30,378 nucleotides of DNA, from the NCBI GenBank assembly GCA_945861145.1, contig CAMATL010000013.1, forward strand, positions 1 to 30,378. Reading direction: 5' to 3'. Below the pieces are notes generated by a model. That model worked only from the letters and a program-made list of their open reading frames with translations, was not told where the DNA came from and ran no database searches. Source of the DNA: a candidate division TM6 bacterium GW2011_GWF2_37_49 (lineage in GTDB: Bacteria > Babelota > Babeliae > Babelales > RVW-14). Shown one piece after another: positions 2,722-24,708 of this stretch (within the stretch, counting starts at the first letter, position 1; each line of letters starts with the position of its first letter). The translations under genes were made by a program, and so were the position numbers.

Positions 2722-4398
2722 ATGAAACAGCTTAAACGCCTTTGGGCGTACACGAAACGTTATTGGAAGATGTTGGCAGCATCGCTTTCTTCGGCCGCCT
2801 TATTCGGCGTAGTTGCCGCGGGTCCGACCTATCTTTTAAAGCGGGTTGTAGATGATATTTTTGTGAATAAAAATCATCATCTCATTCTTCCCATGGCCTT
2901 TGTATTGGTATTTATTTTTGCCTGCAAGGGCATTTTTAGTTTTTTGACTTCATACACCATGCATTGGGTTGGGCATCGCGTTGTTAACGACATACGTTCC
3001 GATTTGTTGGTAAGCGTTATGTGTTATCCGCTGAGTTTTTTTCAGGCGATGACGACAGGGCAGCTTATGTCACACTTTCTCAATGATGTACAGATGATGC
3101 AAAACGCCGCATCGGCGACCATAAAAAACGGTGTGCGAAGCCTTTTTGAAACAATGTTTTTGATTACTTTTGCTTTTCTTCAAAACTGGCAGCTAGCACT
3201 CATGATGGTGTTAGTGGGGCCGGTGATGGGTGTGATTATTAAAAAAATGGGCGCATCAATCAAGCGTTCATCATATCGCATCCAGCAAGAAGTAGGATCG
3301 CTCAGTGATCAGCTACAAGAAACGTTTAGCGGCATGCGTGAAGTGAAGGCTTTTAATGCTGAAGCTTACCATATTTCTCGCTTCGACAACCAGCTCCAAA
3401 GATTTTTTACGGCGACTATGCGTTTTGTTAAAGCTGAAGCACTGCTTCCTTCGCTCATTGAGCTGGTAACCATGGTTGGTGCAGCGCTTGCGTTTTATGT
3501 GGCAGCACAGCAGGTGATCAGTGGCTACATCACCCCCGGGCAATTAACGTCATTTGTGGCGGCATCACTTTTGGCCTATGCGCCGATGAAGCGACTTATC
3601 AATGTGTATGGTGAAATTCAATATGCTTTGGCTGCAGCAGATCGTGTTTTTATGCTGATGGATCGTGTGGTGCCTGCGCAACGCATTGGGCAGCACATAT
3701 CGTTTAAAGAGCAAATTTCATTCAATAATTTATCATTTGCCTACGCGCCAGACCGCCCGGTACTGCGCAATATTAATTTGACACTAAAAAAAGGCGAGCG
3801 GGTTGGCATTGTTGGGCCTTCTGGAGGGGGCAAGAGCACGTTGATTGACCTTCTGCTTGGCTTTATCACTCCGATTGACGGGACCATTACCATTGATGGC
3901 CAGGTGCTTACGCTGGGGAATGGTGCGCAGTGGCGTCACTATGTTGGTTATGTTGGCCAGCGGCCATTTTTGTTTAATGATACCGTACAAAACAATGTGA
4001 TGTATGGTCGAACTAAATTGAATCAAGAATCTATTCAGACGGCAATTGAAGCGGCTGATGCTCAAGATTTTGTCTGTGCGTTAGCAAAGGGATACGACAC
4101 CATGCTGGGTGAAAACGGCAATCTCTTGTCTGGCGGGCAACGACAACGGTTAACGATTGCACGAGCGCTTGCTGGGCGCCCACAATTATTAATTTTTGAT
4201 GAAGCGACTGCATCGCTTGATGCAGCTTCTGAAGATGAAATAAAAAACTCATTACAGCGCTTGCCTGCCGATGTGACCGTAATTATCGTTACGCATCGAG
4301 CCTCATTGCTTAAAGCCGTAGATCGAGTATTGCTTGTGGATGACAATTCGGTGCGTGTTGTACTCAAAGATCAGGCGCTGCGTTCGGTAGCGGTCTAA
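2722..4398 (+). CDS. ABC exporter, fused permease + ATPase (MsbA/lipid A exporter-like)
   Basis: An N-terminal domain with six predicted transmembrane helices, followed by Walker A GPSGGGKST, the ABC signature LSGGQRQRLTIARAL and Walker B LLIFDEATASLD. Confidence 0.9.
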   Translation: MKQLKRLWAYTKRYWKMLAASLSSAALFGVVAAGPTYLLKRVVDDIFVNKNHHLILPMAFVLVFIFACKGIFSFLTSYTMHWVGHRVVNDIRSDLLVSVMCYPLSFFQAMTTGQLMSHFLNDVQMMQNAASATIKNGVRSLFETMFLITFAFLQNWQLALMMVLVGPVMGVIIKKMGASIKRSSYRIQQEVGSLSDQLQETFSGMREVKAFNAEAYHISRFDNQLQRFFTATMRFVKAEALLPSLIELVTMVGAALAFYVAAQQVISGYITPGQLTSFVAASLLAYAPMKRLINVYGEIQYALAAADRVFMLMDRVVPAQRIGQHISFKEQISFNNLSFAYAPDRPVLRNINLTLKKGERVGIVGPSGGGKSTLIDLLLGFITPIDGTITIDGQVLTLGNGAQWRHYVGYVGQRPFLFNDTVQNNVMYGRTKLNQESIQTAIEAADAQDFVCALAKGYDTMLGENGNLLSGGQRQRLTIARALAGRPQLLIFDEATASLDAASEDEIKNSLQRLPADVTVIIVTHRASLLKAVDRVLLVDDNSVRVVLKDQALRSVAV

Positions 4399-4525
4399 AA
4401 ATAGTAAAAGGCCCCCGAGATTTCTCTCGAGGGCCTTTTTTCATTACTAAAAGTGCTCACACCTAAGCAGCTTTATTATCTTTGTCTTTTTCTTGTTAAC
4501 CAAGCGTGCCAAGGAACGCCGGCAA
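4396..4525. repeat. Direct-repeat copy (~94% identity) of 6677..6807: terminator plus degraded flotillin C-terminal codons (minus strand reads ...LPAFLGTLG-stop)
   Basis: Direct nucleotide comparison with 6677..6807 shows 8 mismatches over about 130 bp. In this copy Gln -> stop (gttgacc -> gttaacc). Confidence 0.85.
4406..4441. terminator. Rho-independent bidirectional terminator (A-tract, 11-bp stem with one mismatch, T-tract); copy 1 of a duplicated element
   Basis: aaaa GGCCCCCGAGA tttc TCTCGAGGGCC tttttt lies immediately after the ABC-exporter stop codon. Confidence 0.7.
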
Positions 4526-4526
4526 A

Positions 4527-5027
4527 TTAATCTTCATCTATATAAATTGATATAATTTTTTCAGGACGTTCCGGTCCAGAAATAGGACAATCATATTGAA
4601 ACCTTTGCCTTGCAGTTTGAAAGTTTTCAAACTGACTAGTGTAACCATTGATAGAAGATCTATCGTTAAATAACGACGGATACGTTTGATCAAGGATAAC
4701 AAACGCCCCACTATTCTTCAGAATGACATCTCCACAATGAAATATCTTCGTAAAATCATCTGATTCTAGTGGCCCTGCAGCAAGGGGAATAACATGTATT
4801 TGTACATTCTCTTTTTTATAAACGCGCACTCCAGTACCTGAATCAACGGTCTTTTCCCATCCTCCATCTTCTCTAATCACAAGCGGATCTCGAGGATCAC
4901 GAAAACAACTAAATGATGGATCAACAAGAAAAATATAAATAGGGACTGTTGGGTGTTGTCCTATAAACTCTTGTAAATACAGTGGAAATTGTTGATCTCG
5001 AGCTTCTTGGATAATACTGTTACGCAA
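4527..5027 (-). CDS. Hypothetical protein (166 aa), no recognisable family; stop codon is the first triplet of a 1.27-kb insertion in the flotillin-tail remnant
   Basis: Clean ORF whose TAA (4527-4529) directly abuts the end of the repeat copy. Lies downstream of the 201-aa ORF on the same strand, with a 35-bp gap. Confidence 0.5.
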   Translation of the reverse strand: MRNSIIQEARDQQFPLYLQEFIGQHPTVPIYIFLVDPSFSCFRDPRDPLVIREDGGWEKTVDSGTGVRVYKKENVQIHVIPLAAGPLESDDFTKIFHCGDVILKNSGAFVILDQTYPSLFNDRSSINGYTSQFENFQTARQRFQYDCPISGPERPEKIISIYIDED

Positions 5028-5062
5028 ATAATTAGGCCTATTAAGAAAATCAACGTAACAAC

Positions 5063-5668
5063 CTAATGCAAAAATAAAACCGCAGGTTCTTGAATCGGCT
5101 CAGCTAGCTGATGTAAATGTTGAAATAACACTTCTCTAACTTGCTTATTTTTTTCTCTCACTGCAGTCTTAACACTTTTATCACCAACCTCAAGCGTTGG
5201 CAACGCCCAAGCAACCTGCTCGTCTAAAGCTTGATAATCTGTGTCAGAATCTAGTCGATACATACTAAAAAGCTTTCTTGAAAGAAGATAAATTTGAAAA
5301 AAATGTTGTAATCCTGGGTCAGCAAATGGCTGAAAATCAGCAGAATAACCTGGTGTAATAGCATACTCCCAACCAGTTATATCATTAGGTCTTTGACTGG
5401 ACCGTAAACTGTCTTTATAGTTCTCAAATTTTGAGAATTCAGCTTTTGCCGCATTATATTCTTCAGCTGAGATATTAAAACTCTTTTGCCATGCGTCCTC
5501 TTGAGCCTGTCGCCAAACAGCTTCTTCAGTTGGTAGCTCTGAATACCTGTAGAAATACCCCATCGGCTTTACATTCAAACTAACAAAAGTCAGCATCAGC
5601 ATACAACTCAACACTTGTCGAACAAAATTCATACAAACCCCGCACAAACTTATCAATGCAATTAACAT
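5063..5668 (-). CDS. Hypothetical protein (201 aa), probably exported: hydrophobic N-terminal stretch, possible alternative start MNFVRQ at 5632
   Basis: N-terminus ...CMLMLTFVSLNVKP resembles a signal peptide. No recognisable domain. Co-oriented with 4527..5027. Confidence 0.5.
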   Translation of the reverse strand: MLIALISLCGVCMNFVRQVLSCMLMLTFVSLNVKPMGYFYRYSELPTEEAVWRQAQEDAWQKSFNISAEEYNAAKAEFSKFENYKDSLRSSQRPNDITGWEYAITPGYSADFQPFADPGLQHFFQIYLLSRKLFSMYRLDSDTDYQALDEQVAWALPTLEVGDKSVKTAVREKNKQVREVLFQHLHQLAEPIQEPAVLFLH

Positions 5669-5796
5669 ATCCTATTCATAAGCTTAGTAGCGATATATTC
5701 AAACAGTCAATATAAAAGTGCTAATTAATCATCTTTTTTATATTGATCACGCACGCCTAAGAAGGCTTGAGAACTCTTGCTTACCCTGATTTTTAT

Positions 5797-5856
5797 ACAA
5801 AAACTAATGCCACTCATTGCTGCAATATCATGCAACGGCGGTAGCGACTTGACCAT
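5797..5856. repeat. Second piece of the degraded flotillin 3'-end copy (~86% identity to 6812..6871); minus strand reads ...MVKSLPPLHDIAAMSGI
   Basis: Aligns to the intact flotillin codons ...SMVKSLPPLHDIAALSGI. Together with 4396..4525 it forms one remnant, split by the 4526..5796 insert, which sits exactly where the intact copy has gtct. Confidence 0.8.
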
Positions 5857-5962
5857 GCAGCTCATAGCCCGACTCAAACCCTAGTCATTTAGGACGAAAA
5901 CATTGTAGTTATTGCATGAAATAGTACCTTAATGATAGTCTCTTTGGAGATAGGAGGACCTT

Positions 5963-6283
5963 ATGATCACAAAAGAATTATTTGATGAGATCACACGTCG
6001 TTTAGTTCAAGCATACGATCCTGAAGCAATTTATCTTTTTGGATCTTACGCATGGGGTTCACCAACCGATGATAGCGACGTTGATCTTGCAATTATTGTA
6101 CGGGTAGCAAACCCTCGCCGTATTAAACGTACACTTGCCGCTTCAGAAGCATTATGGGGACTCGGCATCTCCAAAGACGTAATCGTTTACACGCAAGAAG
6201 AATTTGCTCGTGCAGCAGAACATCCTTCAACACTGGCCCATAAAATTTTACAAGAGGGACATGTGTTGTATGGAAAGGCATGA
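5963..6283 (+). CDS. Minimal nucleotidyltransferase (MNT, NTP_transf_2-type), antitoxin-like partner of the downstream HEPN protein
   Basis: Contains the G-S-x9-13-D-x-D motif (LFGSYAWGSPTDDSDVDL). Small at 106 aa. RBS ggagataggagga lies upstream. Confidence 0.8.
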   Translation: MITKELFDEITRRLVQAYDPEAIYLFGSYAWGSPTDDSDVDLAIIVRVANPRRIKRTLAASEALWGLGISKDVIVYTQEEFARAAEHPSTLAHKILQEGHVLYGKA

Positions 6284-6686
6284 ACTATGGCTTTATAAAG
6301 CTGAGGGGGATCTGGCTCTTGCGATAGAGGCATTGGCTATACCAAATGAAAAAATTCGGGATGCCGCAATTTATCACACGCAACAAGCTGCTGAAAAAGC
6401 ATTAAAGGCTTTTCTCGTTTTTAAGCGCGAACCATTACTCAGAACACACGACCTAGAAGATCTTCTCTGGATATGCATGAAGCATGATATTTCGTTCAAT
6501 TATCTTTTTAGATTTGCAGCACAGCTCAATCCTTTAATTATGGAATATCGCTATCCACTCGAAGATTTTGATGAACCTCAAACACCGTTGCCTGAAGAGT
6601 TAAGAGAGGCAATAGAAGCCGCAACAGAGGTTTTTAAGTTTGTAGTCGATATGATCGCAACTGATTCCGTCAGCAGTAAAAAATAG
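6270..6686 (+). CDS. HEPN-domain protein (PF05168-like), toxin-like partner of the MNT
   Basis: Contains ...HTQQAAEKALKAFLVFKREPLLRTHDLEDLL (an R-x6-H-type HEPN motif). Overlaps the MNT gene by 14 bp. Start chosen at ATG 6270, which has an acceptable spacing to the GAGGGA upstream. Alternative start ATG 6261. The listed ORF begins further upstream at 6204. Confidence 0.75.
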   Translation: MERHELWLYKAEGDLALAIEALAIPNEKIRDAAIYHTQQAAEKALKAFLVFKREPLLRTHDLEDLLWICMKHDISFNYLFRFAAQLNPLIMEYRYPLEDFDEPQTPLPEELREAIEAATEVFKFVVDMIATDSVSSKK

Positions 6687-6687
6687 T

Positions 6688-6724
6688 AAAAGGCCCACGG
6701 AATTTCTCTCGAGGGCCTTTTCTC
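6688..6724. terminator. Copy 2 of the duplicated terminator-like element (weaker stem than copy 1), between the convergent HEPN and flotillin genes
   Basis: aaaaGGCCCacggaatttctctcGAGGGCCttttctc. Confidence 0.45.
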
Positions 6725-6744
6725 ATTACTAAAAGTGCTCACAC

Positions 6745-8097
6745 CTAAGCAGCTTTATTATCTTTGTCTTTTTCTTGTTGACCAAGCGTGCCGAGGAACG
6801 TTGGTAAGTCTATGCCACTCAACGCTGCAATATCATGCAACGGCGGCAGTGATTTGACCATGCTGCTCATAAAGTTTGCGGTAGATGAGCCACCCTTGTC
6901 GCCATTGCCACTGTCCCAAACCGTGATCTTATCAATCTTAAGATTTTTGATCGCTTCGGTTTGGAGCTTGACCATTTCTTCCATCTTTTCGACTAAGAGC
7001 ATGGTTGCAGCTTCGCGAGGGTTACCACCGCAAGCATTAACCAACATACGGTAACCATCTGCCTTAGCAGCCAATACCTTCAAGGTACCTTCAGCTTCAG
7101 CCTGCTTAAGGGCAATTACAGCTGCTGCTTTACCGGTAGCTTCAATTCTTTCACGATCAGCCTCAGCCGCTGCATCGATCGATATTTTACGCTTTTCAAT
7201 TTCTTTGGGCACAATTTGCTCTGCTTCAAGACGCGCAAGCTCAGAAAGGCTTTTTGCTCTGCTGATCTCAGCATTTGATTGCTGTTGTGACACCTGGCCA
7301 CGCATAGCCGCTTCTGATTCACGTTGCAAAAGTTCTGCATTAAATGCTGCAATTCTTGCTCGTGCATCGTTTTCGCCCTGTACCGCTTCAGCATTAAAGC
7401 TGGTTACTTTGATACGACGTTCGCGATCCGCTTCTGCACTACCAATATCGCCGCGCTTTTCTTGTTCAGCCACATCTACTTTAGCTTGGTTGATAGCGGT
7501 TGAAGCCGCTTTTTTACCAATGCTTTCAATATAACCAGACTCATCCGTGATATCGGTGATGTTTACGTTAAGCAACATCAAACCAATTTTACGAAGCTCA
7601 GGCTCAATGTGCTTGCGAATTTCCATCAAAAAGCGCTCACGGTCTTGGTTGATTTCTTCAATACGCAAAGAAGCAACCGTCAAACGTAGCTGACCAATAA
7701 TGATTTCAGTCGCCATCATCTCAATGCCTTTGATTGGCAAGCCCAACAAGCGAACTGATGCGTTATTCATCGCTTCAGCTGTCGTATCAATCGCCACCGT
7801 AAAAGTACTTGGCACGTTGATACGAATATTTTGCTGAGACAGCGCCGACTTAAGCGGGATGTGCAAAGTAATCGGGGTCAAATCGAGATAATCATAATCT
7901 TGGATCAATGGCCACACAAAGGTACCACCGCCATGATAACATCTAACCGACTCGCCGCCCGTCACCTTACCATACACGGCTAAGATGCGGTTTGATGGAC
8001 AACGCTTGTAGCAATTGGCCAAAAACACGAAGGTGAAAAAAATGAACGCTGTGGCTGCTACAATCGCAGCTACAAAAAAGTTAATCGTTACAAACAT
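6745..8097 (-). CDS. Flotillin-like SPFH/band-7 protein (FloA/YqiK-type)
   Basis: N-terminal transmembrane helix, an SPFH domain, then a long Ala/Glu-rich coiled-coil region (EAEQIVPKEIEKRKISIDAAAEADRERIEATGKAAAVIALKQAEAEG...). Confidence 0.85.
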   Translation of the reverse strand: MFVTINFFVAAIVAATAFIFFTFVFLANCYKRCPSNRILAVYGKVTGGESVRCYHGGGTFVWPLIQDYDYLDLTPITLHIPLKSALSQQNIRINVPSTFTVAIDTTAEAMNNASVRLLGLPIKGIEMMATEIIIGQLRLTVASLRIEEINQDRERFLMEIRKHIEPELRKIGLMLLNVNITDITDESGYIESIGKKAASTAINQAKVDVAEQEKRGDIGSAEADRERRIKVTSFNAEAVQGENDARARIAAFNAELLQRESEAAMRGQVSQQQSNAEISRAKSLSELARLEAEQIVPKEIEKRKISIDAAAEADRERIEATGKAAAVIALKQAEAEGTLKVLAAKADGYRMLVNACGGNPREAATMLLVEKMEEMVKLQTEAIKNLKIDKITVWDSGNGDKGGSSTANFMSSMVKSLPPLHDIAALSGIDLPTFLGTLGQQEKDKDNKAA

Positions 8098-10745: not shown

Positions 10746-11096
10746 ATGAAGAACATGAACAAACTTTTCTTAATGTCTGCTCTTTTATTAGCAGCAAGTT
10801 CAACAAGTTACGCTGTAATGAATTTGCAACTCGATAATGATCGAGCTGAAGCTCTAACTGCACATTTTGCTCAACCTTTGGCCGATGGCCGAATGCACGA
10901 AGCTGTTAATGCCAACAGTCAAGAAACTGTTGAAGTTAGCAGCAAATGGCTAAACAATGAGGTTGTTGTTACTTGGAAAAATGCAGCTGGCGAAGTGAAG
11001 GATACGGATACTGTCCACTTCGACAATGCTAATGAAACTCTTAAATCTTCGTCTGATGATGACCAAGGCGACGGTCACGCAGACAAATTACGCTAA
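10746..11096 (+). CDS. Small secreted protein (116 aa), unknown function
   Basis: Signal peptide MKNMNKLFLMSALLLAASSTSYA. RBS ccaggagatatcc upstream. A terminator follows. Confidence 0.6.
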   Translation: MKNMNKLFLMSALLLAASSTSYAVMNLQLDNDRAEALTAHFAQPLADGRMHEAVNANSQETVEVSSKWLNNEVVVTWKNAAGEVKDTDTVHFDNANETLKSSSDDDQGDGHADKLR

Positions 11097-11137
11097 TCCA
11101 GCACCGTAATTTTTTTAATTCTAGATTAGAATTGTAG

Positions 11138-11169
11138 GGCCTTGGTTTTAAAAACCAAGGCTCTTTTTA
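11138..11169 (+). terminator. Rho-independent terminator
   Basis: GCCTTGGTTTT a AAAACCAAGGC followed by tcttttt. Confidence 0.75.
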
Positions 11170-11285
11170 ATTAGATCTCTTCCGAAACTTAAACTTTTAA
11201 TGTAACAGACTCAAATTCAAACTCTGCGTAACCTTCAGTTTGTGGTACACTGGATCAAACATGGCCATACAAAGAAGGATCTGGT

Positions 11286-24514: not shown

Positions 24515-24559
24515 TCAAACTATACTCTTCATGGTTGAAAAACAGGATTTTGGTGGATC

Positions 24560-24627
24560 CCGGCTCGCAGGCCGGGATGACAGGAGAGGAATGACCTTCT
24601 ACATTGTCATCCCGCCCTGCGAGCCGG
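24560..24627. repeat. GC-rich 23-bp inverted repeat (22/23 match) with a 22-nt spacer, between convergent genes; REP/MITE-like palindrome or bidirectional terminator
   Basis: CCGGCTCGCAGGCCGGGATGACA ... TGTCATCCCGCCCTGCGAGCCGG. Each arm also carries an internal CCGG...CCGG mini-palindrome. Confidence 0.6.
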
Positions 24628-24708
24628 AATACATTCTTGATATAAAAAAGTCAGTATTTTCAAGAGGGTTGAGTATAATATCAATATTTACTCCAGAATT
24701 CACTTACA

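Follow-up and report, generated by a model that had tools for sequence, protein, structure and literature searches.

Between an MsbA-like ABC transporter gene and a convergent flotillin gene, a contig from a candidate division TM6 bacterium (CAMATL010000013.1, assembly GCA_945861145.1; the whole stretch of 30,378 nucleotides is called here the window) carries a small islet of accessory genes. The islet holds an MNT-HEPN gene pair that lies between two copies of the flotillin 3' end and its terminator, and the upstream copy is itself split by a nested insertion. The window is a metagenome contig (ERZ27280245); repeats in it were found by repeat search and pairwise alignment, and its genes were annotated by Pfam, NCBIfam and PADLOC scans. 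The features of the locus, in window coordinates, are as follows.

2722-4398, plus strand: MsbA-like ABC transporter gene (Pfam ABC_membrane and ABC_tran), the left conserved flank, with its stop codon TAA at 4396-4398.
4397-4525, unstranded: copy A1, the bidirectional terminator hairpin (4406-4439) and the last 21 codons of the flotillin remnant.
4526-5806, minus strand: the nested insertion (cargo W), 1281 bp, one gene of about 380 aa and its upstream region.
4527-5027, minus strand: open reading frame ORF166, which protein comparison with P0001 and P0004 places as the C-terminal half of the cargo W gene.
5063-5668, minus strand: ORF201, which makes up the N-terminal half of the same gene; its N-terminus is hydrophobic, and a frameshift shortens it.
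5807-5866, unstranded: copy A2, flotillin remnant codons about 409-428 (20 codons), which translate as MSCMVKSLPPLHDIAAMSGI and end at junction J1.
5867-6678, plus strand: the MNT-HEPN cassette, 812 bp, including a 96-nt upstream spacer (5867-5962).
5963-6283, plus strand: MNT (Pfam PF18765/PF01909).
6270-6686, plus strand: HEPN (Pfam PF05168), overlapping MNT by 14 nt.
6679-6871, unstranded: copy B, the hairpin (6688-6721) and the 41 codons that end the intact flotillin gene (6748-6871).
6745-8097, minus strand: intact flotillin (SPFH/Band 7) gene, Pfam Band_7, 450 aa, the right conserved flank, with its stop codon at 6745-6747.

Two junctions bound the cassette: J1 at 5866/5867, where the remnant meets GCCCGACTC, and J2 at 6678/6679, where the end of HEPN meets the terminator, the HEPN stop codon falling within the first bases of copy B. 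The MsbA-like gene adjoins the site in all strain variants described below, and the close alleles of the flotillin are P0013 to P0016.

The duplicated flotillin end and the two inserts

A sequence-only reading of the window had proposed that the flotillin 3' end and a shared terminator are duplicated around the islet, and by repeat search and alignment the duplication is real, with some correction of its bounds. The first piece, A1 (4397-4525), is identical to 6679-6807 of copy B at 120 of 129 positions (93%), close to the match of about 94% that had been read between 4396-4525 and 6677-6807. The second piece had been placed at 5797-5856 with an identity of 86%; the repeat is there, displaced by 10 bp, and A2 (5807-5866) agrees with 6812-6871 of copy B at 54 of 60 positions (90%). 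The duplicated target amounts to 193 bp and comprises the terminator and the last 41 flotillin codons, where the terminator and about 40 codons had been assigned to 6677-6871; copy B itself starts at 6679. Between A1 and A2 the nested segment does replace just the four bases gtct (6808-6811 in copy B), as first read, but it spans 4526-5806 (1281 bp) rather than 4526-5796 (1271 bp), with an alignment ambiguity of about 3 nt at its right edge.

The 34-nt hairpin pattern occurs in only two places in the window, with none expected in shuffled sequence, and the local alignment of one flank with the other scores 293 against a shuffle maximum of 25. On the two strands the copy A hairpin folds at -22.7 and -27.5 kcal/mol and the weaker copy B hairpin at -17.2 and -18.6 kcal/mol; each of the convergent genes retains a terminator after the duplication. 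The remnant is pseudogenised, as had been noticed, a Gln codon CAA having become TAA (plus-strand TTA at 4496-4498, against TTG at 6778-6780 in copy B). We considered whether the homology reaches further, into the end of the MsbA-like gene (4383-4396 against 6665-6678), and rejected this: close HEPN homologues natively end in ...SSKK or ...ATKK, so that the AAAAAATAG end is native to the cassette HEPN, and only AAAAATAG is common to the two stretches.

The MNT-HEPN pair had been rightly recognised at 5963-6686, its products matching PF18765/PF01909 and PF05168. Is it a type VII toxin-antitoxin system? The likeness to HepT/MntA (Shewanella SO_3165/3166, the PDB 5yep family) lies in a small Pol-beta-type nucleotidyltransferase gene that overlaps a downstream HEPN gene, adjacency or overlap of the two genes being required of a type VII pair, and in the MNT motif G-S-x10-D-x-D, which can be read here in FGSYAWGSPTDDSDVDL. 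The HEPN protein differs in belonging to PF05168 and not to the HepT/DUF86 class. Two further differences speak against the assignment: MNT scores 46 bits against the NCBIfam MntA equivalog NF047752, below the cut-off of 60, and in an alignment of eight HEPN homologues the Rx4-6H RNase motif is not conserved, there being no invariant Arg 4-6 residues before a His. The invariant residues in that alignment include T59-H60-D61-L62 and R94-Y95-P96. The best match of MNT to an MntA protein in the PDB is weak (E=1e-3), no solved structural relative of the HEPN protein was found, and viral contigs held no HEPN relatives. The pair appears to be of toxin-antitoxin type, not a proven member of type VII, and its toxicity and AMPylation are putative.

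Cargo W had been described as carrying two co-oriented ORFs of no known kind; they are instead two halves of one frameshifted gene. P0001 (201 aa, 98% identical) extends ORF166 upstream, and P0004 (276 aa, up to the end of its contig) reads through both window ORFs, which makes ORF166 and ORF201 a single gene of about 380 aa. In the window one T has been lost from a T run near 5068, cutting ORF201 short, and in another strain (L012) one base has been lost from another homopolymer run, at 5148, so that different homopolymer changes break the gene in different strains while it is intact in at least one (P0004). Such changes may reflect decay or phase variation. ORF166 does have its stop codon at the start of the insert, at bases 2-4 (4527-4529) and not in the first triplet.

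The cargo W protein has no Pfam, NCBIfam or PADLOC match; a word-indexed search recovered only the protein itself, and a full HMMER search only four remote, uncharacterised homologues among 1.84 billion representatives. An AlphaFold2 model of ORF166 has a pLDDT of 65, and in a Foldseek comparison with the PDB it gave TM scores of at most 0.37 and no significant match. At the ends of cargo W (4526/5806) there are no terminal inverted repeats and no target duplication; 4 bp are deleted instead. The GC content at third codon positions (GC3) is 0.22-0.30 in cargo W, 0.27 in MNT, 0.33 in HEPN and about 0.44 in the flanking core genes, and the low GC3 of both inserts is consistent with a foreign origin.

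Strain variants and the order of events

Strain variants were retrieved by exact-protein look-ups of 90%-cluster members, which found the same locus in many other assemblies, and the contigs compared included some from European Nucleotide Archive (ENA) k141 assemblies, from Logan and from NCBI metagenome-assembled genome (MAG) data. Within one species the locus occurs in four states, called here E, W, A and WA.

State E is the empty site of L016, L017 and L019, where the MsbA stop codon, one terminator and the flotillin 3' end follow one another with a single repeat copy and no MNT-HEPN cassette. L017 is 98-99% identical to the window and L016 is 92-95% identical; L019 is the NCBI MAG GCA_947445965.1. 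The arrangement that the sequence-only reading had suggested looking for in relatives, with the MsbA-like gene, terminator and flotillin directly convergent, is thus present in the same species. The ancestral state is MsbA, one bidirectional terminator and flotillin, and copy A1 of the window is nearly identical to the single copy of L017 and L019. Flotillin scans of genome and metagenome contigs gave only relatives at 59-87% amino-acid identity, in which MsbA is not next to flotillin; these distant relatives are uninformative on the empty site.

Two side observations concern this neighbourhood. In the sister species L014/L015 (flotillin 92% identical in nucleotides) the flotillin operon is kept and both outer neighbourhoods are different: MsbA is not there, ankyrin-repeat genes lie nearby and a VanX-like gene is relocated, which suggests that the 3' side of flotillin is a general rearrangement breakpoint. 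More divergent relatives (L016:11365-11410; L014:11368-11418) also have, from the flotillin stop codon to the terminator, some 40 additional nt that include a second hairpin (ATTTTCGCTnAGCGAAAAT); this stretch is lost in the window lineage, and L021-type strains carry a different spacer.

State W is the architecture of the window, found in L012, L027, L029 and L030 and in short Logan contigs that span single junctions. One might ask whether the duplication and the nesting are an assembly artefact, a chimera of co-occurring strains. The window does come from a metagenome contig, the same series of samples contains several strain types side by side, and in one contig (L025) two architectures are joined through a repeat of 99 nt. 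Yet identical junctions are found in at least six independent assemblies (L012, L013, L027, L029, L030 and L032) that derive from ENA k141, Logan and NCBI MAG data, different samples and different assemblers; the window copies A and B, shorter than k=141, differ at 15 positions; and the Logan contig L013 spans the junction of A1 with the cargo. An artefact seems to us highly improbable.

State A, found in L021 (GCA_945869805.1) and L022, has the MNT-HEPN cassette, a third terminator copy and a different cargo, in the order MsbA, T1, ATPase segment, 91 nt of the HEPN 3' end, T2, remnant, MNT-HEPN, T3 and flotillin. T1 is a 99-nt terminator copy with nine remnant codons, and in L021 it is 100% identical to T2 over the 99 nt. 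The cargo is a 1875-bp segment (L021:11775-13649) with a gene for a 519-aa AAA_35 ATPase, and the remnant (L021 13741-13940) is an uninterrupted 195 nt in which gtct is still present. L021 also holds a 291-bp repeat that takes in the 91 nt of HEPN and whose copies are 98.3% identical; a second tandem unit that the ATPase cargo had overwritten in part would leave such a repeat. In state WA, represented by L025, a T1-type copy and the ATPase cargo come after the W array. As to the ATPase itself, which is also present in L022 and at L025:10816-11382, Walker A (GKTT) and Walker B (FIDEID) motifs can be seen by eye, and a C-terminal ...D...ELK stretch resembles a PD-(D/E)xK nuclease; the ATPase cargo replaces part of one repeat unit.

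What order of events do these states imply? W and A strains agree at both J1 and J2, so the MNT-HEPN insertion happened once. The state A remnant, with gtct in place, meets the cassette at the same junction as in the window, and the 1.28-kb insertion is therefore the later of the two. Two successive insertions, in this order, are what had been proposed from the window, and the uninterrupted remnant beside MNT-HEPN in L021 and L022 bears this out; the proposal falls short in that the locus is more dynamic, with three terminator copies, other cargo and mosaic strains.

The flanks and the repeat copies themselves have also been exchanged. Over 10.9 kb the identity between the window and L012 is 99.2%, and 26 of their 84 differences cluster in 6793-7546, the 3' half of flotillin, at a density of 3.4% against about 0.3% elsewhere, which indicates that 6793-7546 may well be a homologous-recombination tract that starts inside copy B. 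At five of the six positions at which it differs from the window copy B, the L012 copy B has the copy A state, so that part of the divergence between A and B in the window would reflect an imported flotillin allele and not decay of the remnant. Repeat copies within each genome have strain-specific states in common: the window copies A and B have two derived changes in common, and T1, T2 and T3 of L021 a different spacer. L027 is a mosaic: its copy A is of the window type, its copy B of the L021 type. All these patterns accord with homologous recombination between strains together with gene conversion or unequal crossing over between copies; for the L027 mosaic and the tract of nucleotide differences at 6793-7546 in particular they fit flank exchange by homologous recombination, seen as sequence patterns only.

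A bias towards synonymous differences between the copies was considered as a sign that the remnant came from another lineage, and was dropped, the window copy B lying in the imported tract; against the L012 copy B the remnant shows four synonymous differences and three others, which is uninformative. Elsewhere in the window, a small ORF at 10746-11096 (116 aa, with a signal-peptide-like N-terminus) and its 3' flank differ from L012 at about 40 positions in less than 400 bp (10799-11177), a segment that may be either hypervariable or replaced.

Origin and spread of the islet

How did the islet arise? We think it probable that it is a strain-variable accessory islet made by one duplicative insertion, entered by a later nested insertion, and then reshaped by recombination. 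As an accessory-gene hot spot the locus is well documented but fairly ordinary. In the first event the 812-bp MNT-HEPN cassette was inserted with duplication of 193 bp of its target, leaving flotillin intact, MsbA with a terminator, and a dead flotillin 3' remnant on the MsbA side. In the second, a 1281-bp segment, its gene now frameshifted, entered the remnant, which may be regarded as a harmless landing pad for further cargo.

The Pfam, NCBIfam and PADLOC scans show no integrase or transposase at the locus, and the repeat search no terminal inverted repeats at the cassette ends (5867/6678), in agreement with the sequence-only reading; no tRNA or Rfam family was found in the region. A transposase does not account for 193 bp of target duplicated around an insert of 812 bp. 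Such a duplication would fit template switching, long staggered-break fill-in, or a single crossover of a circle carrying the target. We favour an illegitimate, recombinase-independent, duplicative insertion, for which template switching or staggered-break fill-in are candidates, because a circle crossover explains the spread and the arrays, not the origin. The insertion may have been joined at an 8-nt microhomology at J2, AAAAATAG, common to the native HEPN end and to the empty site, which reads TAAAAATAG directly after the MsbA stop codon.

Ordinary homologous recombination would then have spread the islet, by crossovers in the flanking genes between strains, and unequal crossing over between the repeats would have produced arrays. 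Recombination from repeat to repeat would also remove the insert precisely, and the toxin-antitoxin pair may penalise that deletion; since the repeats would allow such loss, preferential persistence of an addictive pair would be expected, as general knowledge of chromosomal toxin-antitoxin loci would lead one to think.

A Campbell-type route deserves consideration beside this one. Here recombination between direct repeats forms a circle of about 1 kb (5867-6871, 1005 bp: MNT-HEPN, terminator and flotillin 3' end), which re-enters an empty site through a single RecA-dependent crossover within some 190 bp of homology, and repetition gives tandem arrays. The topology of the product is exactly that of a single crossover, L021 has a second, partial tandem unit (the 91 nt of HEPN, T2 and remnant, ahead of MNT-HEPN, T3 and flotillin), and L027 combines a recipient-type copy A with a donor-type copy B as a single crossover predicts, though a double crossover in the flanking genes accounts equally well for mosaics. 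A Logan contig of a related cassette (L033) starts and ends with the same 30-mer, a 1040-bp cycle in a k=31 assembly graph; a 30-nt exact repeat alone can make such a cycle, and L034, from another sample, is not a full one. The circle must also already hold the target sequence, so that a first illegitimate event is still needed and the origin is left unexplained. We consider the Campbell-type route possible, and clearly the less likely course.

Several points weigh against the duplicative insertion as we have set it out. Its mechanism is read from the product and is not directly observable, and Campbell-type integration of a circle of about 1 kb would give the same product. No donor locus of the cassette was found against which to judge microhomology at J1. 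The similarity of copies within each genome might be due to gene conversion, or to repeated rounds of excision and reintegration, instead of one duplication in situ, and the empty sites of L017 and L019 could be secondary precise deletions. The composite L025 contig, finally, could be a chimera of strains that occur together.

Do related MNT-HEPN pairs of other organisms lie in similar surroundings? At L038 (HEPN 49% identical) the pair is found between a 48-nt remnant of the recJ 3' end (90% identical) and an intact convergent recJ, a window-like geometry, the repeats lying at 2345-2392 and 3175-3222 with an alignment score of 71 against a shuffle maximum of 27. At L033/L034 (HEPN 76% identical) the 30 nt that follow the HEPN stop codon recur in the preceding gene, which encodes a membrane protein, within its 3' part and some 1 kb upstream; in L033 the exact 30-mer stands at 1-30 and 1041-1070, and the Logan contig closes on itself. 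There is no flanking duplication at L041 (HEPN 48% identical), nor at the plasmid-borne pairs of Ilyobacter, Cetobacterium and Bacillus (31-37% identical), and the plasmid-borne pair of Azospirillum is borderline (score 35, shuffle maximum 31). Flanking duplications in three of four closer-relative loci are suggestive, this being a comparison of loci in hand and not a survey. A recombination site common to the regions upstream of MNT was considered and rejected, the alignment of six cassette upstream regions showing no conserved motif.

A general route might be imagined, in which MNT-HEPN cassettes, about 0.8-1 kb long, enter their targets by a duplicative process that needs no recombinase and copies 30-200 bp of the target 3' end, as seen at flotillin, recJ and a membrane-protein gene, the unit then amplifying in tandem, perhaps circularising, and possibly being kept by its addictive pair. 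We regard this as doubtful. A separate observation is a palindromic intergenic repeat of the GGATCCCGG...CCGGGATGACA type, present in the window (24554-24630) and in related organisms (L035:940-1000; L001:9704-9898), the L035 copy standing downstream of a further MNT-HEPN pair; the repeat has the look of a dispersed element akin to repetitive extragenic palindromes or miniature inverted-repeat transposable elements (MITEs).

Integrase-mediated islands classically show direct repeats of the 3' end of a target gene that itself stays whole, and the locus might be read as the remnant of a site-specific integrative element, with the 193-bp repeats as attL and attR, a replacement 3' end carried in, and an integrase since deleted. 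The locus shows the required repeats at both ends of the insert and an intact target gene, and the remnant translates like a functional allele of the relative P0014 (AAM...LPAF). The AAM and LPAF states are ancestral, however, being partly present in L014, in the L012 copy B and in the empty sites. No tyrosine or serine recombinase occurs in any of the four locus states, the whole unit is only about 1 kb, and the repeats are long. Related cassettes duplicate unrelated genes, recJ over 48 nt and the membrane-protein gene over at least 30 nt, with no common core; A1 hardly differs from the resident sequence of the empty site, and copies within a genome have strain-specific states in common. An integrative element is, in our judgement, very unlikely. 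Insertion sequences, transposons and MITEs are set apart from the present inserts by inverted repeats, by a short target-site duplication of fixed length and by a transposase, none of which is present here.

Known systems and the meaning of the locus

A close parallel in kind is that of the minimal mobile elements of Neisseria (Saunders and Snyder 2002, cited in PMC1797815). These are alternative small cassettes, or none, between conserved genes, with no mobility genes, and their exchange is attributed to homologous recombination in the flanks (PMC1797815). The present site is similar in being empty, or occupied by MNT-HEPN with cargo W, or by MNT-HEPN with the AAA ATPase, according to the strain, with no transposase, integrase or terminal repeats and with recombination mosaics. 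It differs in that the cassette is flanked by a 193-bp target duplication which seeds tandem arrays and nested insertions, and in that the organism, an uncultured one, is not known to be naturally transformable. The locus is best read as an islet of the minimal mobile element type that varies between strains.

For the first insertion the comparison is with another process. Homology-facilitated illegitimate recombination was reportedly described by de Vries and Wackernagel and by Prudhomme and colleagues, both in 2002; that process and microhomology template switching have been defined experimentally in transformable bacteria. The present insertions resemble their products in the lack of a transposase signature, in a duplicated target of varying length, and in one junction that is possibly microhomologous (AAAAATAG, 8 nt, at J2). 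Either process may have acted here.

What does the locus add? At one small site in an uncultured bacterium there is an unusually complete natural series, from the empty site through a cassette with duplicated target and a nested insertion to a tandem array that bears a different cargo. One sees in it how accessory genes gather beside a housekeeping gene without a mobility enzyme, and how a dead remnant becomes a landing pad. If the recurrence of long duplications near MNT-HEPN pairs is not a coincidence, it could point to an uncharacterised insertion route, or addiction modules could be stabilising insertions that are otherwise unstable; if it is one, the locus is ordinary population-level variation in gene content. 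The main interest lies in the complete evolutionary series and in the repeated link between related MNT-HEPN pairs and long duplications of host gene ends.

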